Source: a virus. Taken from it: a stretch of DNA of 64,000 bases. The first letter of the stretch is position 1; each line of letters begins with the position of its first letter. The notes below the pieces were generated by a model. That model worked only from the letters and a program-made list of their open reading frames with translations, was not told the DNA's origin and searched no databases. The translations under genes and the position numbers were made by a program. This document shows, in pieces, positions 18,422 through 52,900 of the stretch. The stretch is taken from IMG/VR virus record IMGVR_UViG_3300037307_000721, one strand, 5' to 3'.

Positions 18422-19006
18422 ATGGGAAGGAAAAGACCAAGCGAGTTCAAGTGCAAGAAGTGCGGCGGCCCATGGACCAAGGATAGCGCCAAGGGGCTCT
18501 GCGCCAGGTGCTACCATCGCGCATGGGTCGCGGCCAACCGCGAGCGGGACAGGGCGCACAAGAGCGCGCACTACGAGCGCGGCAAGCGCGCGGGCCTGCC
18601 CGCGCAGCAGCGAGACAAGCGCTACTTTGACGGCAAGCGCGCCCGCGCCGTCGAGCGCGATGGCTCACGCTGCGCGAAATGTGGGCGTAAGGTGCGCACG
18701 AAGGGCAGCTTGATCGTCCATCACAAGGACGGTCGTGGGCGTGGATGCGCGCAGCCAAACAATCGGCTGAGCAACCTGGAGACAGTCTGCCGCCGATGCC
18801 ATCCGTCACAGCACAAGTTGCGTCGGTGGTCACGGCAGCATGATGCCTGCCGGATCTGCGGCAGAGAAGATCGCAAGCACAATGCACACGGCCTCTGCGT
18901 CGCGTGCTACAGCCGCCTAGAGTATCAAGGCGAGCTCGCAACCTTCATCGAGCGAGGTACAGAATGTCCGGCAACGAGAAGAAGACCGCCATCCAGAAGG
19001 GCCTGA
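18422..19006 (+). CDS. HNH endonuclease with Zn-finger arms
   Basis: RCAKCG...LIVHHKDG...NNRLSNLETVCRRCH; lower GC; upstream TTGACA on AAA stop codon. Confidence 0.85.
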   Translation: MGRKRPSEFKCKKCGGPWTKDSAKGLCARCYHRAWVAANRERDRAHKSAHYERGKRAGLPAQQRDKRYFDGKRARAVERDGSRCAKCGRKVRTKGSLIVHHKDGRGRGCAQPNNRLSNLETVCRRCHPSQHKLRRWSRQHDACRICGREDRKHNAHGLCVACYSRLEYQGELATFIERGTECPATRRRPPSRRA

Positions 19007-20247: not shown

Positions 20248-21117
20248 ATGCCACAGGACATCTTCAAGTGCAAGAGCTGCGGAAGTCCCAACATGAAGGG
20301 GCGGGCGAGGGGCCTCTGCCGACGGTGCTACCTGGCCGACTACAAGCGATGCAACGCCGCGCGCTTGAGGGCGCGACAGAAGGAATACGCCGAGGGTTGG
20401 TACCGACGGAACGCACGGCAGAAGCGCGCGAGCGTGCTCGCCTATCGCACCGGAGGCAACCGGGAGCGAGCATTGGAACGGGCTGGCTATCGCTGCGAGA
20501 AGTGCGGCGAGCGCCGGCATCGCCTGTTGGGCGTGTGGCATCTGGACGGACGCAACTGGCGGCACGAGCAGCCCAACCACGCGATCGGGAACCTGATCGT
20601 ACTGTGCCGTCACTGCGCTCCGATCATCTTGCTTCGCCATGGCTGGAGCGACGAGCCGGGTTGCTATCCACGGTGCCTGAACTGCGAGCGAATCGACCGG
20701 TCGCACATGGCGCACGGCCTCTGCACCGCCTGCTACCAACGCCTGGGTTCATCTCAGCGGTTGTTCATCCGCGAGGTCCGGGCGGAGGACGCAAGCGAGG
20801 CCGACCGTGCGCGGTTCTGGCAGCACGTGGATCGTCGCAGCTCCGCGCCGTGCTGGCTATGGACCGCCTCTGGCACCGATGGGGGCTATGGCTATGCGAG
20901 GGCAGGGCGCGTCAGGGTGCTGGCGCACAGACTTTCTTTCGCATTGGCGAACGGGGCGGCCGAGCAGAACGTGCTGGTGTGTCACTCGTGCGACACGCCG
21001 GAGTGCGTGAACCCCGCGCACCTCTTCGCCGCCACATCGGAAGACAACATCCAGGATGCCATTCGCAAGGGACGCATGCGTTGGCAACGAAAGGATCAAC
21101 CCGATGACCATCCGTGA
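20248..21117 (+). CDS. Double-domain HNH endonuclease
   Basis: N-half paralogous to 18422 HNH; C-half RFWQHV..CWLWT..AHRL..CHSCDTPECVNPAHL..N. Confidence 0.85.
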   Translation: MPQDIFKCKSCGSPNMKGRARGLCRRCYLADYKRCNAARLRARQKEYAEGWYRRNARQKRASVLAYRTGGNRERALERAGYRCEKCGERRHRLLGVWHLDGRNWRHEQPNHAIGNLIVLCRHCAPIILLRHGWSDEPGCYPRCLNCERIDRSHMAHGLCTACYQRLGSSQRLFIREVRAEDASEADRARFWQHVDRRSSAPCWLWTASGTDGGYGYARAGRVRVLAHRLSFALANGAAEQNVLVCHSCDTPECVNPAHLFAATSEDNIQDAIRKGRMRWQRKDQPDDHP

Positions 21118-26536: not shown

Positions 26537-26925
26537 ACACCTGGCGGGTCAAGCTCTTCTGCGTGTCCGAGGACGGCTCGCGCCGTCTCATGCACAAGGG
26601 CGTCTTCTACGCCGACACCGAGGCGGACGCACGCGAGTGCGCCACGGACGCCTGGTGGGACATGCGGCTGGAAGCGGCCGGCTGCTCACCGGACTTCGAG
26701 GTCCAGCCGGTCTGCGACAATGACGATCTCACCGTCTGCACGCGGTGCGGGGCGTGGATGGAGCGATCCACGGGCAGGCACTTCGTGATCGAGGACGGTG
26801 AGAGCCCGAAGCTGATCCAGTCCTGCGAAGGCGGGAACGACCACCCGCCCGAGGACATCTGCCCGTTCTGCCTCGCGACCAGGGACTACTGCGAGTGCGA
26901 GGAGATGGGAGGAGAGAACGCATGA
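26533..26925 (+). CDS. Hypothetical Cys-rich protein
   Basis: RBS GGAGG. Confidence 0.75.
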   Translation: MNTWRVKLFCVSEDGSRRLMHKGVFYADTEADARECATDAWWDMRLEAAGCSPDFEVQPVCDNDDLTVCTRCGAWMERSTGRHFVIEDGESPKLIQSCEGGNDHPPEDICPFCLATRDYCECEEMGGENA

Positions 26926-27191
26926 GCCAGCAGATCATCATCGCCTGGATGCAGAAGGGCGACAACGACAGCATCTTCACCCTGGGCTGGAACAACGGCC
27001 AGGGGCCGACGCGCGTCTACGACAAGGACCGCTACGACGCGCGCCTCGACATGGGCCGCGACCGCGACCGCGACGGCCCGCTGCCCTGCTTCGCGAACTA
27101 CCGCGAGGCCATGGCCTGGATGCTCGCCAACCGCGGCGAGCAGTGCCAGGTGACAGTGCCCGCGGCGATGCGGCTGGGGCTGGTGGCCTGA
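26922..27191 (+). CDS. Hypothetical protein
   Basis: RBS GGAGGAG. Confidence 0.75.
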   Translation: MSQQIIIAWMQKGDNDSIFTLGWNNGQGPTRVYDKDRYDARLDMGRDRDRDGPLPCFANYREAMAWMLANRGEQCQVTVPAAMRLGLVA

Positions 27192-27448
27192 TGCGCGCAG
27201 CCGAGATCATCGAGACCGTGATGCGCGCCCTGCCGTGCTGCGACCAGGTGCGCGGGCTGCACATCGTCCGGGACGAGGTGAAGGAGCACGAGGAGGACGC
27301 CCTCGTCCGCTTCACCTGGCGTGGCGATACGTTGAGCGTGAGCAGCGACCTTCGGGTGGAACAGGTGCAGGGGAGCATGTGCGCCACAAGCAACCTGGCC
27401 ATCCTCTTCGAGGCCCTGCTTCGCCGGGCATTCCTGAGCAAGGACTAG
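27191..27448 (+). CDS. Hypothetical protein
   Basis: TGATG coupling. Confidence 0.7.
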   Translation: MRAAEIIETVMRALPCCDQVRGLHIVRDEVKEHEEDALVRFTWRGDTLSVSSDLRVEQVQGSMCATSNLAILFEALLRRAFLSKD

Positions 27449-27452
27449 GGCG

Positions 27453-27905
27453 ATGCGCTTCCACGTCGTGAGTCGGGAGGAGGCCTGCCGGTGGAACCCG
27501 GTGGGCAAGCCGCACGTCATCATCTCGGTCACCTCGCCACCGGATCCGGAGGCGGAGGTCAAGCAGAACGAGCACACGCGCGGCGTGCTTCGTCTCGGCT
27601 TTCACGACTTGGACCAGGAGCCCGGGCCGATCTTCCGCAAGGTCTACGGCGAGCCGGTCATGTTCACCGAGGAGATGGCCAGGGCCATCGACTCGTTCGT
27701 GGCTCAGCATGCCGCGGACATCGAGACCGTGATCGTGCACTGCGACGCCGGACACTCTCGCTCGCCGGCCATCGCCGCGGCACTGGCGCATCGCTACAAC
27801 GAGCCGAGCGTGAACGACTGGTTCTTCAAGCATCGGACGCCAAACCGCTTCGTCTACCGCACGCTCCTCGAGGTGCTGATGGACGAGGGGACGAGGAAGT
27901 CATGA
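27453..27905 (+). CDS. Predicted protein-tyrosine/dual-specificity phosphatase
   Basis: HVIISVT, LRLGFHD (general-acid Asp), VIVHCDAGHSRSPAIA, PN-x2-VY. Confidence 0.88.
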   Translation: MRFHVVSREEACRWNPVGKPHVIISVTSPPDPEAEVKQNEHTRGVLRLGFHDLDQEPGPIFRKVYGEPVMFTEEMARAIDSFVAQHAADIETVIVHCDAGHSRSPAIAAALAHRYNEPSVNDWFFKHRTPNRFVYRTLLEVLMDEGTRKS

Positions 27906-27976
27906 AGGTTCGCATCGAGCAAGACGACAACCCGATGAACCCCCGCGAGGAGTTCGACAACCTGGAGATCTGTTGA
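27902..27976 (+). pseudogene. Stranded original 5' end of the 28538 gene
   Basis: MKVRIEQDDNPMNPREEFDNL matches KIVRDENPLNPREEFDHL; native RBS and ATGA coupling. Confidence 0.8.
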
Positions 27977-28620
27977 CCGATTCGGCAACTTGTGTAAGCC
28001 TTTGCACTAGGTTGTCGAACCGGAGGTCGGAAGTGAACAGGAAGACCAAGCGCGGAACGACCGCGACGCGCAATCGTGCGAAGGCGAAGGCTTGGCGCGA
28101 CGCCAATCCCGACAAGGTGCAAGCCTATGAAGAGCGTCGCGCAGAGAAAAAGCGGGCCTACACACGCGCTTGGAACGCTGCGCACAAAGAGCAGAGGCTC
28201 AGCTACTGGCGAGAGTACTATCGAACGCATCCTGAGCGGCGCGCGTACTACAACGAGCGCGGGAAGGCCAGGCGGCGACAACGCGAGCATGCACTGCGAT
28301 TGCGCGTGTTGGCCCATTACGGATCAGTCTGCGCCTGCTGCCAGGAGTCGACACTCGAGTTCCTGACAATCGATCACATCGAGGGCGGCGGTGTGCAGCA
28401 CAGGAAGGGCATACCCAGCGGGAACATCTACCGTTGGCTAGAAGCCAACGGTTACCCAGCAGGATTCCGCGTCCTGTGCATGAACTGCAACTGGGCCACG
28501 CGGTGGGAAGAGACCTGTCCGCACCAGAGAGACACAAGTGCCAAACGCCAAAATAGTCCGAGACGAAAACCCGTTGAATCCTCGTGAAGAGTTTGATCAT
28601 CTTGGGACAATGGTCTGCCT
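27965..28620 (+). mobile_element. HNH homing-endonuclease cassette 4 (HNH + replacement 5' gene end)
   Basis: Lower-GC segment between two versions of one N-terminus; boundaries approximate. Confidence 0.8.
28033..28587 (+). CDS. HNH endonuclease
   Basis: CACCQE..FLTIDHIEGGG...VLCMNCN; RBS GGAGG before GTG. Confidence 0.85.
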   Translation: MNRKTKRGTTATRNRAKAKAWRDANPDKVQAYEERRAEKKRAYTRAWNAAHKEQRLSYWREYYRTHPERRAYYNERGKARRRQREHALRLRVLAHYGSVCACCQESTLEFLTIDHIEGGGVQHRKGIPSGNIYRWLEANGYPAGFRVLCMNCNWATRWEETCPHQRDTSAKRQNSPRRKPVESS

Positions 28621-29080
28621 GCACAAGCGGTACGAGCTGGGCGACGAGCACACCATCAAGGCCGACGACTTCATCTGCTGGGAGTCCATCGAGAAGCACC
28701 TGCGCGAGAAGCTCGGAGCCGTCGTGGTGCTACCGCTCTACCTGTTCGACCACAGCGGCATCACCATGAGCACCGACTCGTCCGGGTTCCGCGCGGCCGA
28801 TTCCGCCGGCTGGGACTGGGGCCAGGTCGGCTTCATCTACGCCACCCGGGAGGCCGTGCTCGCGAACTTCATGAAGAAGCGCCTCAGCAAGGCCATGCTC
28901 GAGCAGACCGCGGCCGTGCTGGTATCCGAGGTGGAGGTCTACGACCAGTACCTCCAGGGCGACGTGTGGGGCTACATCATCGAGGACGACGCGGGCAACG
29001 TGGTCGACTCCTGCTGGGGATTCTTCGGAGAGCAGTACGCCAAGGAGGAGGCTGCGCTCGCACTACAGGGCGCCGGCTGA
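28538..29080 (+). CDS. Conserved mobile-element protein (NPRE.FD.LG...DHSGI...GQVGFIY...DSCWGFFG) with recoded 5' end
   Basis: GTG start inside HNH 3' end. Confidence 0.8.
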   Translation: MPNAKIVRDENPLNPREEFDHLGTMVCLHKRYELGDEHTIKADDFICWESIEKHLREKLGAVVVLPLYLFDHSGITMSTDSSGFRAADSAGWDWGQVGFIYATREAVLANFMKKRLSKAMLEQTAAVLVSEVEVYDQYLQGDVWGYIIEDDAGNVVDSCWGFFGEQYAKEEAALALQGAG

Positions 29081-29110
29081 CAGCGGCGCGGCGTCCACAG
29101 GAGGTGGGAC

Positions 29111-29347
29111 ATGGGCGACGAGAGGGAGAGGATCCTGTCATGGGGCCGCAAGCTGTTTCCGTGCGTGACCAGGGCCGAGCCGTGGGAGAAGGGCTGCGCG
29201 CCGCCCAGAGCGACACGTGGCTGCCGGGCGTACCGGCTCTTCACCGACGACTTCAACTGCATGGCCGTGGCGTTCATCGACCCGTGGAACCTGATGCCCT
29301 GGTTCCAGCCGACGGGCGCCACGGAGATGCCGAGACCGCAAGGCTGA
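29111..29347 (+). CDS. Hypothetical protein
   Basis: RBS GGAGGT. Confidence 0.65.
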   Translation: MGDERERILSWGRKLFPCVTRAEPWEKGCAPPRATRGCRAYRLFTDDFNCMAVAFIDPWNLMPWFQPTGATEMPRPQG

Positions 29348-29352
29348 GACCG

Positions 29353-29628
29353 ATGGCGAAGAAGGACGTCGTGCAGGTTCCGATCACGTGCTGCAACCAG
29401 TGCCGGCACTGCAAGCAGGAGAAGTACTACACCGCGGACTCGTACGAGGACGTCACCGCCTGGAACTGCACGCACCCGGACCTAGGGGGCGCGAAGAACC
29501 CGACGTCCTCAGCTCGGGGCTCTTGGGTCTCACCGCCTGGGATCGGCAGACTGGACTGGAACGATCCGAAGCCAGCCATCCCGAGCTGGTGCCCGTTCCG
29601 CAAGAAGAGCAGGAGCAAGAAGTCATGA
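29353..29628 (+). CDS. Small Cys-rich protein
   Basis: CCNQCRHC...C...WCP. Confidence 0.7.
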   Translation: MAKKDVVQVPITCCNQCRHCKQEKYYTADSYEDVTAWNCTHPDLGGAKNPTSSARGSWVSPPGIGRLDWNDPKPAIPSWCPFRKKSRSKKS

Positions 29629-30311
29629 CCATCTGGTTCACAGCCGACACGCACTTCGGCCACAAGAACATCTGCGAGCTGGCGCAGCGCCCGTTCCGGT
29701 CCGCCGAGGAGCACGACGCGGTGCTCATCAGCAACTGGAACGAGCTCGTGCAGCCGCAGGACACGGTCTACCACCTGGGCGACTTCGCCCTGGCCAAGCG
29801 CGACTACATGCTCGAGGTGCGACGCAAGCTCCATGGCGACATCTGCATCCTGCTCGGCAACCACGACTCGGAGATCGAGAAGCCGGCCGTGCGCGACCAG
29901 TTCCACTTCGTCAAGGACCTCTACTTCTTCAAGCAGAAGGTGGAGGGACGCGAGGACAAGGTGCGCATCCACCTGTGCCACTACCCGATGGTGCACTGGT
30001 GCGAGTCGCACCATGGCACCTGGCACCTGCACGGGCACTGCCACGGCGAGCTGCCGGACGACCCGACGCTGCTCCGAATCGACATCGGCGTGGACTGCAA
30101 CGGCTTCCAGCCAGTCAGGCTCGAGAACGTCATCGCCATCATGGAGAACCGGATCCTGAAGGGAGCCGGGCCGCAGCGCCGGCACGCCCCCAAGTGCGTA
30201 CGTTGCGGCAGCCCGCTGGACGCTGGGCGCTGCACCGACAGCACGTGCCCCTTCTCGGACTGCGCACAAGACGACCAGCGCGGCTGGGTCGGGCACCCGG
30301 ACAAGCCATGA
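29625..30311 (+). CDS. Calcineurin-like metallophosphoesterase
   Basis: ADTHFGH, LGDF, GNHD, CHYP, HGHCH motifs. Confidence 0.92.
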   Translation: MTIWFTADTHFGHKNICELAQRPFRSAEEHDAVLISNWNELVQPQDTVYHLGDFALAKRDYMLEVRRKLHGDICILLGNHDSEIEKPAVRDQFHFVKDLYFFKQKVEGREDKVRIHLCHYPMVHWCESHHGTWHLHGHCHGELPDDPTLLRIDIGVDCNGFQPVRLENVIAIMENRILKGAGPQRRHAPKCVRCGSPLDAGRCTDSTCPFSDCAQDDQRGWVGHPDKP

Positions 30312-34461: not shown

Positions 34462-34667
34462 ACCTCTACCTGGAAGCGCGGCCGGGCGAGTACGAGCGCA
34501 AGCTCAAGCCCGGCGAGCTCGTCCGAGCCGGCGACGTCATGGTCTACAACCACGGGCAGAGCCGTGTCCTGGTTCGTCGCTGCAAGTACGACCCGGGCTG
34601 CTGCGTGGACCACGTCGTCACGTCGAGCGAGGACTTCCGGAGAATCGAAAAGGATCCGCAACCATGA
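34458..34667 (+). CDS. Hypothetical protein
   Basis: ATGA coupling. Confidence 0.65.
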   Translation: MNLYLEARPGEYERKLKPGELVRAGDVMVYNHGQSRVLVRRCKYDPGCCVDHVVTSSEDFRRIEKDPQP

Positions 34668-34939
34668 AGCGTTGGAAGACGTCGCTGCTCATGCCCGCGC
34701 GCCGCGTGCCGGAGGTCGCAAGGTGTCTCGCCGCCCGCGCGGAAGACATCGCGTGCAAGTACCAACAGGCGCACTCACAGGACTTCGAGATTGAGATCGT
34801 GCAAGTGGTGCGCCGTCCACGCAGCGTGCTCGTCGCCGTCGAGAGCCAGCAGGACATCGCGGTGAACCTGGTGTCAGACGCCATCATGGCGTGCCTGCCG
34901 GACGACTGCCACGACGTGAAGGTCCCCTACTGGAGCTGA
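34664..34939 (+). CDS. Hypothetical protein
   Basis: RBS AAGGA. Confidence 0.65.
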   Translation: MKRWKTSLLMPARRVPEVARCLAARAEDIACKYQQAHSQDFEIEIVQVVRRPRSVLVAVESQQDIAVNLVSDAIMACLPDDCHDVKVPYWS

Positions 34940-38249: not shown

Positions 38250-38927
38250 ATGGGCGAGCGCTACAATCCACTGGCCGAGGGCCACGTCGAGCCCGCCGGC
38301 AAGGACGCGAAGGGCCGCCAGACCTGGACGCTGACGGTGGAAGGCCTTCGCCAGCAGGCCATGGTTGAGGACGAGCTCCGCAACCTGGGCTATGTGCAGA
38401 ACGAGGCCGGCCTGTGGGTGCACGACCCGCAAGCTCGCGAGGAGCTCGGCCTCGAGGCGCTTGCCATGGAGGAGTACGAGCGGCTGCTCGGCAAGACCGT
38501 GCGCGTGAACCAGTTGCTTGGCTACACGAACCGCGACTTCTCCGAGGAGAAATCCGGGGACTTCGTGGTGCGCATCGACGCAACGCCACGCAGCGACGTC
38601 TTGCGCTGGGTCGACGACTGGCTCGACCCGGTCTACAACGTGACCGTCCTCGAGGCCAACGGCCTGCCCGGCCGAAGCCCGCTGCGCAGCTGTTGGATCT
38701 ACGGCAAGTCGTACCACCGAGGCGTGGCGCACGAGACTCAGCCGGGGTCGATCGCGGAAGAGATCTGTCAGCACGAGCCGGACATCGACACGCTGGCTTT
38801 GCCGCACGACCTGCACCCCGAGACGCACGATGGGCGCATCGAGTTCGTCATCGACGTGGTGTGCTCGAAGTGCGGCACGTCCGGGTCCTTCGCGGTGACG
38901 GTGAGCCCCGAAGACATCAACTGGTGA
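38250..38927 (+). CDS. Hypothetical multi-domain protein
   Basis: RBS GAGGAGG. Confidence 0.75.
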   Translation: MGERYNPLAEGHVEPAGKDAKGRQTWTLTVEGLRQQAMVEDELRNLGYVQNEAGLWVHDPQAREELGLEALAMEEYERLLGKTVRVNQLLGYTNRDFSEEKSGDFVVRIDATPRSDVLRWVDDWLDPVYNVTVLEANGLPGRSPLRSCWIYGKSYHRGVAHETQPGSIAEEICQHEPDIDTLALPHDLHPETHDGRIEFVIDVVCSKCGTSGSFAVTVSPEDINW

Positions 38928-38940
38928 GGTTTCCTCACAC

Positions 38941-39315
38941 GTGACGAAGATCTCAACCACCCAAGAGAAGCGCGTCGGCCAGCTGCGCAAGTCCTTCCTC
39001 GAGTTCCATCGGGCGAACCCGTGGGTCTACGAGCGGCTCGTCGAGCTCTGCTTTGAGCTCAAGAGCAAGGGCTTCAAGAAGTACTCGATGCGGACACTGG
39101 TCGCGGTGCTTCGCTTCGAATGGGACCTCAAGACCGGTGGCCAGACCGTGATCCTGGCGAGCGGCGAGCCCCGTCGCGTGAAGCTGAACGACCACCACAC
39201 GGCCTACTATGCCCGCTACTTCGTGGCGCAGTACCCGGAGTTCCGGGACTTCTTCGAGTTCCGGACTGCCGAAGGAGATGAGGACTTCTCCTTCATGAAT
39301 GAGATGGAGCCATGA
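38941..39315 (+). CDS. Conserved phage protein (FH..NP.VY...LRFEW...KLNDHH.AYYAR)
   Basis: GTG start after GAGGT; small hairpin 38926-38940. Confidence 0.75.
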   Translation: MTKISTTQEKRVGQLRKSFLEFHRANPWVYERLVELCFELKSKGFKKYSMRTLVAVLRFEWDLKTGGQTVILASGEPRRVKLNDHHTAYYARYFVAQYPEFRDFFEFRTAEGDEDFSFMNEMEP

Positions 39316-39836
39316 CCAAGCTGCTCAAGCACTTCATCCTCCGCGTCTGGACCGACGGCGGAGAGCACTACCAGGCGCCCGACTACTTCCGGGTGTCGCT
39401 GTCCGCCGAGGACCTCGAGCGGTACCTCGGCATCTACGGCATCGTCCTCGAGCTCGAGGAGCGCATGAAGGGCGAGCCCAGGGACAAGCTGCTCGACTTC
39501 CACTTCCTCGCCTGCTGGGACTACCGGGCAAGCTTCTTCGGCCGGCCCGACGTGAACGAGCAGGACCAGGAGCGGCTCGAGGCCCTGCTCGACCACGCCG
39601 ACAACGAGGAGTGCGTGGAGATCTCCGGCGACGACGCGCTCTTCATCGACAGCCTGATGGAGGACCACGAGGGCTTCGAGGAGGGCGGCTTCCAGCGCAT
39701 GGACTACGTCTACGCTCGCTTCGACAAGGACGGTCTGCACTGGGAGGGATGCGTCAAGCACTGCGACTACCAGGTCTCGACGGCCCGCCTGCCCTGGAAG
39801 GCACTCGGTGTCGAGGGAGAGCCGGTGAAGGAATGA
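39312..39836 (+). CDS. Acidic hypothetical protein
   Basis: ATGA coupling. Confidence 0.75.
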   Translation: MTKLLKHFILRVWTDGGEHYQAPDYFRVSLSAEDLERYLGIYGIVLELEERMKGEPRDKLLDFHFLACWDYRASFFGRPDVNEQDQERLEALLDHADNEECVEISGDDALFIDSLMEDHEGFEEGGFQRMDYVYARFDKDGLHWEGCVKHCDYQVSTARLPWKALGVEGEPVKE

Positions 39837-50565: not shown

Positions 50566-51352
50566 GCCTCCGCCGCGCCCCTGCGTGGGCTGCAGCTACT
50601 GCTGCAAGGTGGCGCCCTGCATCCCGGGCTTCCTGGTCTACGGGCCGGGCAAGCCCTGTGGGGCCCTGCGCTGGGACGCCCGGGGCGGGCGCTACCTCTG
50701 CGGCGTCGTGCTCGACGAGCCGGAGCGCACCCGAGACAAGCTGAAGGAGCAGATGGCCATCGGCGCCGGCTGCTCGTCGCCGCTCTTCAACGAGGAGCGA
50801 GAGAGGATGATTCAGATGACACGCGGCAAGATCAAGGACACGCACGCCGGGGTCAGGCTCGTGGAACGCCTCGACGGGGTCGTCTCGCTCGAGGAGCTGC
50901 GCAAGCGCCTCACGGACGGGGACGTCGAGTACCTGCGCCGCCAGTCGGTGACGCGCTCGCTCTGCCGAACCGCGGCCCCGGATGGCACCTGGGTCTACAT
51001 GGTGGTGAATCGCAAGACGAAGAGCATCATCACCATCCTGACTCAGGAGCTCGCCGAGGAGCTCTACAGGCAGATCGGCCGAGACCCACGGGAGCTCAAG
51101 CTCGTCCCGCCCGACCTCAAGCAATGCCAGGGTGAGAAGCGCGAGGGAGGCCCGTACTCCTTCATGACGCTCGGGCCAATCCCGCCCCTGAAGCGCTGCA
51201 CGAACGCGCCGACCGTCGTCGTGCGCGAGACCAAGCCGGCCGAGGACGGACTGCAGGGTTCGATGTCGCTCTGCGACGAGTGCCTCGAGGCCTTTCGGAA
51301 GCAGAACCCGCACGCCAGCTACAGCGTGAAGGAGATCAAGCGCGATGGGTAG
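50549..51352 (+). CDS. Three-module protein: CxxCxxCC cluster + HAxxRxxER domain + Zn ribbon
   Basis: CVGCSYCC; THAGVRLVER; C...C...CDEC. Confidence 0.75.
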   Translation: MADWIEPPPRPCVGCSYCCKVAPCIPGFLVYGPGKPCGALRWDARGGRYLCGVVLDEPERTRDKLKEQMAIGAGCSSPLFNEERERMIQMTRGKIKDTHAGVRLVERLDGVVSLEELRKRLTDGDVEYLRRQSVTRSLCRTAAPDGTWVYMVVNRKTKSIITILTQELAEELYRQIGRDPRELKLVPPDLKQCQGEKREGGPYSFMTLGPIPPLKRCTNAPTVVVRETKPAEDGLQGSMSLCDECLEAFRKQNPHASYSVKEIKRDG

Positions 51353-52130
51353 CATCCAGATCGAAGGCATCCTCATCAGCAAGAACCGCAAGACGGGCTG
51401 CTCCATCAACGTCGACCAGTGCACGCCCACCCCGTGGTGCCGGCCGCACTGCTACCGCTGTTTCCGCGACGAGGTCATCATCGCCGAGAAGGGCTGGGAC
51501 ACGACGCCGAACTCGGGGCCCATCACCTGGCGCACGCAGCGCGAGTCCTACAAGCGCAACGAGCGAGCCATCATGCTGGCCGGCCAGGAGGGCAGGCTCG
51601 ACACCGCGGCCGCGCTCATCGCATGTCGGCTGAAGGACCCGGACCCGCTGCGCGGCAACGGCACGGGCGACCTGTTCCCCGAGCTCTGCGAGCTCTACGC
51701 CCGCATCGCGTTCCACGGCAAGCCGGTGTTCCTCTTCTCGCGCCGGCCGGCCATGATCCGCGAGCTCCTCGACGTCTGCGATGGGTTGGAGCTCGATCCG
51801 GCGAAGCGGCCGTTCGTCCTGGGGTCCATCGACCCCTCGACCACGCTCTGCGAATGCCACCAGCTCGTCGAGGCCACGGCAGCGATCAACGGGCGCCCGG
51901 TGCTGGCCTACGCTACGGACAAGGGCGGAGGCATGGGCTGCGGCGAGGTTCGGGCGCATCGCTTCAGCCAGTACATCCAGGTGGTCTTCGGCTACCACAC
52001 GAACTTCATCAAGACCGTGATTCCGCATCCGCTGGCCTGCCCAGCAACCAACGGGCGGCCAATCCACTGCCGCGAATGCCGAAAATGTTTCGGACTTGAC
52101 CAGGACACTCCAACGGTTCGACAATGTTAG
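51345..52130 (+). CDS. GP88-like (radical-SAM-derived) phage protein with recoded 3' end
   Basis: N.KTG.S..CTPT..C..HCY, LRGNGTGD, FLFSR, SID, CPAT..C..C..C. Confidence 0.7.
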   Translation: MGSIQIEGILISKNRKTGCSINVDQCTPTPWCRPHCYRCFRDEVIIAEKGWDTTPNSGPITWRTQRESYKRNERAIMLAGQEGRLDTAAALIACRLKDPDPLRGNGTGDLFPELCELYARIAFHGKPVFLFSRRPAMIRELLDVCDGLELDPAKRPFVLGSIDPSTTLCECHQLVEATAAINGRPVLAYATDKGGGMGCGEVRAHRFSQYIQVVFGYHTNFIKTVIPHPLACPATNGRPIHCRECRKCFGLDQDTPTVRQC

Positions 52131-52827
52131 TATCGTTGTCATGCCACAAGGAGTGCCCATGGGAAAGTACTCGGTGCGCTGCCGCGCGTGCGGCGCGCGA
52201 TTGGGTGCGATCACCGCCGCGCACGTTCGCGGACACGGAATGACTCTAGTCGCCTACATGCGCCGTTTCGGCGGCCCGCTAACCGCCGAGCTTGTGCGCC
52301 AGAGTCGAGGAAGAGCCAAGTCGCCGGAGCAGCGAAAATCGCTAGCCGAACGATTCTGGGAGAAGGTATCGCGTGGGGCTGAGGACGAGTGCTGGCTGTG
52401 GACCGGCGCCGGGGCTCGCACGAGCCGCTACGGCAACCTGATCCGCCCCGACGGCCAACACGCGCAGGCGCATCGCGTGGCGTGGGAGTTGGCGCATGGG
52501 CCCGTGCCTGACGGATTGCAGGTACTCCACACTTGCGATCATGGACTATGCGTCAATCCTGCTCACCTGTTTCTTGGAACGCAGCTCGACAACGTGTTGG
52601 ATATGGAACGCAAGGGCCGCCACGGGCGCGGCTACCAACTGGCACCTGGCTGCCGCCAAGGCGAGTGCAATGGCAATGCCAAGCTCACGGAGAAGCAGGT
52701 GCGACTGGCTAAGCAACTGGCGGCGCGTGGCATGCGCCCGTGCGACATACAAGAGCGGACAGGCATCAAGAAGAACACGCTGTTTCACATTCTGAGCGGA
52801 CGCCAGTGGACGCATGTCGAACCATGA
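52020..52827 (+). mobile_element. HNH homing-endonuclease cassette 5 (replacement 3' gene end + HNH)
   Basis: Lower GC; two versions of the gene tail flank the HNH; boundaries approximate. Confidence 0.85.
52141..52827 (+). CDS. HNH endonuclease with N-terminal C2H2-like motif and C-terminal HTH
   Basis: RFWEKV..CWLWTG..AHRVAWEL..HTCD..CVNPAHLFLGTQLDN. Confidence 0.9.
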   Translation: MPQGVPMGKYSVRCRACGARLGAITAAHVRGHGMTLVAYMRRFGGPLTAELVRQSRGRAKSPEQRKSLAERFWEKVSRGAEDECWLWTGAGARTSRYGNLIRPDGQHAQAHRVAWELAHGPVPDGLQVLHTCDHGLCVNPAHLFLGTQLDNVLDMERKGRHGRGYQLAPGCRQGECNGNAKLTEKQVRLAKQLAARGMRPCDIQERTGIKKNTLFHILSGRQWTHVEP

Positions 52828-52900
52828 GAAGGAGTGCCCCGCGACGGCCGGACAGCACGTCAAGTGCACCGAGTGCCGGCGCTGCTTCGGGCCGGAATGA
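52823..52900 (+). pseudogene. Stranded original 3' end of the GP88-like gene
   Basis: HEKECPATAGQHVKCTECRRCFGPE* vs HPLACPATNGRPIHCRECRKCFGLD. Confidence 0.85.

Follow-up and report, generated by a model that had tools for sequence, protein, structure and literature searches.

The window analysed here comprises 64,000 nucleotides of viral DNA (IMG/VR virus record IMGVR_UViG_3300037307_000721), and the locus of interest lies on its plus strand around a gene of the phrog_6186 family, which we call gene X (Table 1). Read in the direction of transcription, a dual-specificity-phosphatase-like gene, the native left neighbour of gene X in the window phage, is followed by a 24-codon open reading frame (ORF) that we refer to as the stub, a 56-nucleotide spacer between the stub stop and GTG 28033, the gene of an HNH homing endonuclease, and finally the X ORF itself, with 180 codons from GTG 28538 to 29080. 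The stub ATG at 27902 overlaps the phosphatase stop as ATGA, with the Shine-Dalgarno (SD) sequence GAGGA four bases 5′ of it, and its peptide begins MKVRIEQDDNPMNPREEFDNL. These details agree with the original prediction, made from the letters of the DNA before the present analysis, which described a 24-codon stub with its own ribosome-binding site (RBS) and coupling to the phosphatase gene and read the locus as an HNH cassette that had brought a recoded 5′ gene end. The endonuclease gene forms an ORF of its own, preceded by an SD sequence (GGAGG, 28022-28026), starting at GTG 28033, stopping at 28587 and not in frame with X; an alternative start, TTG 27973 (204 aa), overlaps the stub stop. 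Its last 50 nt overlap the restart of X in another frame, so that of the predicted GTG start after the HNH ORF the GTG at 28538 stands, but its position is within the last 50 nt of that ORF. A scan of 27700-29200 for sigma-70 promoters found none, and none was found for plus-strand terminators. Contigs that carry relatives of X are cited below by our own labels (L042, L043 and so on).

Table 1. Features of the gene X locus and of a second endonuclease locus in the window (window coordinates; GC3, fraction of G or C at third codon positions; AT3, the corresponding fraction of A or T; pLDDT, predicted local distance difference test score).
Feature	Coordinates	Strand	GC3	Basis
Upstream gene, dual-specificity-phosphatase-like	27453..27905	+	0.89	PF00782 DSPc E 1.5e-6, under curated cut-off; phrog_5614 E 1.6e-19
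Orphan stub, native start of gene X, 24 codons + TGA	27902..27976	+	0.90	Family profile; identity to L043; RBS GAGGA 27893-27897
Putative left border of cassette, 8-mer GAGATCTG	27965..27972	+		Same 8-mer in L042
Predicted RNA hairpin	27967..28028	+		-29.3 kcal/mol, z -2.4
HNH homing-endonuclease gene, 184 aa from GTG 28033	28033..28587	+	0.74	phrog_2255 HNH endonuclease E 3e-7
Replacement (donor-type) 5′ end of X, GTG + ~30 codons, AT3-rich	28538..28630	+	0.52 (28538-28624)	Common to contig L042
Right-hand recombination breakpoint, probable end of co-conversion tract, inside X	28627..28633	+		Informative sites, Fisher p 7e-8
Native body of gene X, phrog_6186 family	28631..29080	+	0.93	phrog_6186 E 2.9e-30; pLDDT 94.6
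Gene Y, with AT3-rich 37-codon tail	51345..52130		0.94 (body), 0.54 (tail)	
HNH_3 gene after Y	52159..52827		0.72	PF13392; C-terminal helix-turn-helix
Start-less native-style fragment after the HNH_3 gene	52823..52900		0.85	Repeats the Cys-rich C-terminal motif of Y

Several comparisons indicate that the 24-codon ORF is the native start of gene X. A profile of the X family, built from 44 members, matches the stub at E 5.4e-5 over profile positions 2-23 among 1349 six-frame segments of the window, and the DNA of 27902-27965 shares 81% identity with the beginning of X in L043, where the gene is uninterrupted. All close X homologues start with MKxRIExDxDPxxPRxxFDNLGxMVC; in the stub, native X homology ends after CTG G at 27964/5 and is followed by GAG ATC TGT TGA, the last three codons and the stop being without homology to X. 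The codons of the stub were predicted to be native, and their GC3 is indeed close to that of the X body. Insertion-free homologues, a comparison with which had been suggested, bear this out, as X is uninterrupted in L043 and L047/L048, and L043 and L048 carry the stub-type start joined directly to the body (the L043 product is 78% identical to window X). Furthermore, a blind six-frame comparison of the window with itself, composition-filtered, the unfiltered run being swamped by low-complexity off-frame matches, paired 27890-27964 with 28529-28603 at E 1.5e-4. The two copies lie on the same strand, 565 bp apart, and this pair and a pair at 52 kb, described below, are the only short same-strand duplications flanking an HNH gene in the whole window.

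The second copy of this N-terminus is a diverged foreign allele rather than a native sequence spelled anew. Over 14 gap-free codons stub and replacement have 4 identical, 7 synonymous and 3 non-synonymous codons, all 7 synonymous differences are third-position changes from G/C to A/T, and the extreme N-termini differ, one copy being longer by a codon. The expectation that the new start uses AT-richer codons is thus borne out by a GC3 that falls to 0.52, and the description of the 5′ end as recoded is only half right, the sequence being a foreign allele with three amino-acid changes, a different N-terminus and a one-codon difference in length. Window positions 28562-28630 share 93% nucleotide identity with L042 and 67% with L043, while the remaining 139 codons of window X share 76% with L042 and 83% with L043. 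Of the sites that distinguish L042 from L043, those up to 28627 are L042-like in the window in 20 cases out of 22 (L043-like in 2), and those from 28633 on are L043-like in 45 out of 60 (L042-like in 15; Fisher p 7e-8). Gene X is a mosaic, because the affinity of the window allele switches from L042 to L043 at 28627-28633. The converted tract ends after HKRY, about 10 codons further downstream than had been proposed; GTMVCLHKRY, which had been assigned to the native body, is still donor-type through GTMVCLHKR, and the native body begins at ~28630.

Two rival explanations invoke no transfer of a foreign gene end. Two same-strand copies 565 bp apart are what a local tandem duplication of the X start would leave if an HNH gene had inserted between the copies and the downstream copy had then diverged in place; however, that copy shares 93% of its positions with L042 and 67% with the native-type allele, while the X body has the opposite affinity, and divergence in place can yield neither a shared foreign allele nor a sharp breakpoint 10 codons past the duplicated part, which leaves this history hardly any credence. 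As little can be given to an assembly chimera of two strain variants joined at the X start. The window comes from a large and probably metagenome-assembled contig, but the longest exact match between stub and replacement is 6 nt, far under the k-mer of any assembler, the mirror structure recurs in the window at another HNH locus, unrelated to this one, and the structure at X is continuous and coherent throughout (stop, hairpin, SD sequence and overlapping ORFs).

The only second copy of the replacement end that we found is that of L042, a 1635-nt Logan contig (SRR27723350) that was reached by a protein route and in which, as in the window, X was called from an internal Met. Its X gene starts with an ATG preceded by a GAGG SD sequence and encodes MLKAKLVRDESPLNPREEFDHLGTMVCLHKRY. 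Upstream of this replacement-type start stand the decayed remains of the same HNH gene and a gene different from that in the window; there is no stub. At 270-400 the HNH coding sequence is reduced to its final ~70 nt, which are out of frame, and an 11-nt island; this is an endonuclease gene in decay. The upstream 269 nt of L042 encode an unrelated protein with an acidic tail, which has no homologue in the window, for which a word-index search of longer proteins gave no usable homologues and an exhaustive search only repetitive proteins; the replacement-type N-terminus is therefore the sole start available to X in L042. GC3 of X in L042 is 0.45 for codons 1-29, 0.67 for codons 30-50 and 0.86 for the rest, so that the AT3-rich tract extends further into X than it does in the window. 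Tract lengths of this kind fit two separate conversion events, with L042 itself as a recipient. The locus is thus polymorphic for the element, which is absent from L043 and L047/L048 and decayed in L042. A blastn comparison of 27400-29100 with 50,697 phage records gave zero matches, and exact DNA patterns of the replacement end had no match in viral_contigs or metagenome_contigs.

The endonuclease itself is intact. In an alignment of 14 sequences (the window protein and 13 relatives) it departs from none of the 19 invariant columns, which comprise two Cys clusters, an Asp-His pair, Asn residues and a terminal CPH, with C100, C102, C103, D114, H115, C149, N151, C152, N153, C162 and H164 among the invariant residues kept, and by sequence its catalytic and zinc-binding residues are preserved. 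No Pfam model matches the protein even at E 1, and its relatives in viral_contigs are limited to 3 distant loci; two copies of the cassette, those of the window and of L042, have been seen so far in the data. As other members of the family end 2-10 residues past CPHQ, the 20-residue tail of the window protein is read-through into the X start.

Group I introns of phages often carry HNH ORFs, and the arrangement at X could be that of a self-splicing intron carrying such an ORF, in which a splice from 27964 to ~28604 would restore X from its native start; codon 21 (L) joined to GTMVCLHKRY does give a perfect family N-terminus. Against this, a covariance search of 27000-30000 on both strands (Rfam, cmscan, E up to 1) found no intron family and only a chance minus-strand match to ALIL, the free room for a ribozyme core amounts to only ~56 nt before and ~60 nt after the HNH domain, and the 3′ flank is without excess RNA structure (z -0.38). 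Moreover, the supposed intron would have to contain, in its 3′ part, a conserved N-terminus typical of the family, which an intron leaves unexplained, and in L042 the same sequence is the sole gene start (ATG with a GAGG SD sequence) with no exon 1 upstream of it. We consider an intron very improbable. The core of the original prediction, that an endonuclease cassette brought a replacement 5′ end and orphaned the native start without any intron, is supported by the uninterrupted genes of L043 and L048, the 93% identity to L042, the breakpoint within X and the outcome of the Rfam search.

The left edge of the cassette may be marked by a short shared sequence. GAGATCTG forms the 8 bases that follow the break in homology, and the same octamer ends the coding part of the unrelated upstream ORF in L042; the reading frame is the same at both loci, and the stop codon comes directly after it. 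By our own rough estimate the chance expectation for such sharing is ~0.02, which makes the octamer suggestive as a border of the cassette. A hairpin is predicted at 27967-28028, with a 17-bp stem (27981-28019) and outer pairs of GAUCU (27967-27971) with AGGUC (28024-28028) and of CCG (27977-27979) with CGG (28021-28023), and 5 of 200 shuffled sequences fold equally well. In the predicted fold, the outer pairs link the last stub codons to the SD region of the HNH gene, and the hairpin is a candidate element for translational coupling or repression of the endonuclease, whereby ribosomes finishing the stub would open the endonuclease RBS held in the hairpin. In T4, homing endonucleases are well known to be repressed at the level of translation (PMC2988022).

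Gene X is presumably translated from GTG 28538, as judged from the sequence, and would then begin (M)PNAKIVRDENPLNPR; the local RNA structure at this start is weak (-3 kcal/mol). In the predicted fold the first strand comprises residues 3-8, and this beta-strand and the invariant D9 and R16 all fall within the replaced part of X, which is needed. Comparison of the X body with L043 (83% nucleotide identity) gives a non-synonymous divergence (dN) of 0.129, a synonymous divergence (dS) of 0.444 and a dN/dS of ~0.29, which indicates that the body is under purifying selection. The family has more than 1200 relatives in phages and metagenomes. X has no Pfam family, and its fold, although predicted with high confidence, has no convincing match in the PDB (best Foldseek E 0.06; best Z 6.2 over 50 residues in a wide VIA-align search). 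The X homologues of L022-L037, with tblastn spans of 740-780 nt, were considered as interrupted genes and rejected, being continuous ORFs with an internal insertion domain. In other large phage contigs, the X homologues at 3959-4852 of L025 and 3932-4924 of L005 have such a domain, ~90-130 residues long, which separates the N-terminal motif from the LPLYLxDHSG core; they too are continuous ORFs.

A second locus of the window, at 52 kb, repeats the arrangement at X in reverse. There the body of gene Y ends in an AT3-rich tail, which is followed by an HNH_3 gene and then by a start-less fragment in native style, and in the comparison of the window with itself 52026-52094 matches 52823-52891 at E 4e-6, the two Y ends sharing 61% DNA identity. 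Gene Y has no relatives in viral_contigs. Within one genome, cassettes of two unrelated HNH families thus have the order of host body, replaced end, endonuclease gene and stranded native end, or its reverse, and the claim that the X locus mirrors the 52 kb case, with the 3′ end replaced there and the 5′ end here, is borne out by the self-comparison, the PF13392 HNH gene and the GC3 pattern. At both loci AT3 is higher in the replaced end than in the accompanying endonuclease gene (p 0.026 and 0.031; pooled Fisher p 0.0013), and this gap in GC3 between replaced end and endonuclease gene is not predicted by a lower-GC donor alone. Such an excess would be expected of an immune allele that is kept apart in sequence from the GC3-rich target, or from a stub with which it could recombine. 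The window also holds two paralogous HNH genes of the PF01844 type on the plus strand (18446-18919 and 20263-20745), 42% identical (E 6e-33) and 1.3 kb apart.

We propose a model for the origin of the locus in which a free-standing HNH homing endonuclease with a travelling flank co-converted the start of X, and in which the stub is the scar of a one-sided repair; we regard this as the probable course of events. In its home arrangement the endonuclease gene would lie directly upstream of X, with the tail of its ORF overlapping the X start. The enzyme would cut endonuclease-free X alleles in the conserved N-terminal motif (the NPREEFDNLG codons), and repair from an endonuclease-bearing genome would copy the endonuclease gene together with the first ~30 X codons of the donor. 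These donor codons should resist cutting, because most of their third positions differ from those of the GC3-rich native allele. Only the X side would have offered homology, because the upstream neighbours differ (a phosphatase in the window, an acidic protein in L042), and the left side would have been joined illegitimately at or near the break, at ~27964/5, because the donor-type upstream gene is absent from the window. The first 21 codons of the recipient, with RBS and ATG, would thereby be stranded upstream, their stop being supplied by the cassette. As the stub would represent recipient DNA from the gene start to the break, the probable cleavage region is placed near 27964/5. The endonuclease would be translated from GTG 28033, and the hairpin may couple its translation with that of the stub.

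A more elaborate reading would make the cassette an evolved, context-independent module for replacing gene starts, consisting of a stop-supplying border with an anti-SD hairpin, the HNH gene and a portable X start. Were this the case, translation of the endonuclease would depend on ribosomes arriving from whatever ORF the cassette lands in, and the endonuclease would keep the portable start distinct from native codons, any drift toward the GC3-rich target being cut, which would account for the higher AT3 of both replaced ends relative to their own endonuclease genes. The features that invite this reading are that the cassette stands behind two unrelated upstream genes, that in both cases the upstream ORF ends in GAGATCTG, read in the same frame, that the hairpin pairs the border with the HNH SD sequence, and that the AT3 excess recurs in both cassettes of the window. 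We think it improbable as a whole, and its strict version, in which one adapted, self-repairing unit lands in X whatever lies upstream and leaves a stub every time, more doubtful still. L042 is without a stub, which means that a stub was not formed at every insertion; the data hold only two copies of the cassette, the octamer is short and the z-score of the hairpin modest (-2.4), and ordinary intronless homing with occasional illegitimate repair predicts everything seen.

The proposed one-sided homing event has to be held against several observations that weigh on the other side. No intact donor was found, which would have a complete HNH gene ahead of a replacement-type X and lack a stub, and L042, itself a contig of 1.6 kb, carries only the HNH remnant; among 5.8 billion proteins, the window's own entry aside, the endonuclease has no relative above 56% identity. 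The illegitimate join may be ancestral and later inherited by ordinary two-sided homing. The shared octamer could be due to chance, and in L042 part of it falls within an acidic GAG/GAC repeat. Some of the drop in GC3 at the X start could be due to the general preference for weak structure near start codons. GTG 28538 has a poor SD sequence (AGAGAGA, 28526-28532) and lies 50 nt inside the HNH ORF, and the public gene call starts X at Met25, giving 156 aa; an X started there would lack conserved core, because the first strand, D9 and R16 lie in the replaced part.

The model draws on processes established in other systems. In T4, one-sided homing with an illegitimate join at microhomology has been shown experimentally (Parker, Belisle and Belfort 1999, as reviewed in PMC2988022). 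As in T4-type intronless homing (SegB, SegF, SegG, MobE), an endonuclease gene here lies in or next to a conserved gene and is sporadic among relatives, donor flank is co-converted with variable tract ends, decayed copies exist, and the endonuclease-bearing allele differs at the presumed target; one-sided events of that type join the non-homologous side at microhomologies, as the left join here would have been made. Unlike the T4 cases, however, the join at X lies inside the target gene, leaving a translatable 24-codon stub and an X that depends on a start supplied by the element, and the HNH enzyme, a predicted homing endonuclease, belongs to an uncharacterised family without a Pfam match.

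The other close likeness, in architecture, is with the mobile-ORF (mORF) gene hybrids of fungal mitochondria, described for atp6 of Allomyces macrogynus and for atp6, atp9, cox2 and nad3 of Glomus sp., where, in Glomus, identity to sister taxa is 91-98% for the native pieces and 64-81% for the inserted ones (PMC3630166). In both, an endonuclease ORF is accompanied by a foreign duplicate of a gene end, and the gene's own end lies cut off on the far side of the endonuclease gene. The DNA of that native fragment closely resembles that of sister taxa, while the inserted end has diverged much more at the DNA than at the protein level (here 81% against 67%). The fungal hybrids replace the 3′ (C-terminal) end, often with the ORF fused in frame to the host gene, and involve LAGLIDADG or GIY-YIG enzymes in mitochondria, whereas the window has an HNH enzyme in a large phage; because it is the 5′ end of X that is replaced, the element must here also supply RBS and start. 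The 52 kb locus is the direct 3′-end counterpart of the fungal hybrids, and the window locus works like them without being a member of their group.

A further phage case is the cassette of T4 mobA and gene 60, said to have been described by Bonocora and colleagues in PNAS in 2011, in which the gene is reportedly split and a 50-nt gap is crossed by ribosomal bypassing. There, as here, an endonuclease gene moves with adjoining sequence that keeps the interrupted host gene functional, but X is rescued by a duplicate gene start and no bypass element was seen. Our search of a limited library of literature found no phage paper on a stranded 5′ stub beside a free-standing endonuclease gene.

Around the locus, the genes that stand beside X in L043 and L042 have window homologues at 26895-27191, 34664-34936 and 38703-39665, displaced by 1-10 kb. 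The positions of these flanking-gene homologues show that accessory-gene content around X is mosaic among these related phages.

The mechanism proposed here, intronless homing with co-conversion and one-sided illegitimate repair, is known homing biology and no new kind of system. The architecture follows from that biology, has a published 3′-end analogue in fungal mitochondria and will not surprise a specialist. What the locus offers is a well-delimited natural record of one homing event, in which the end of the stub marks the probable break and 28627-28633 the end of the tract, and the stub gives a specific target prediction for an uncharacterised HNH family. It also indicates that an endonuclease cassette can supplant the opening codons of a phage gene along with its translation signals, with the consequence that gene callers place the start wrongly, here at Met25. 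Finally, the X and 52 kb loci together make it possible to test if homing endonucleases keep immune alleles away from the host optimum in codon usage.

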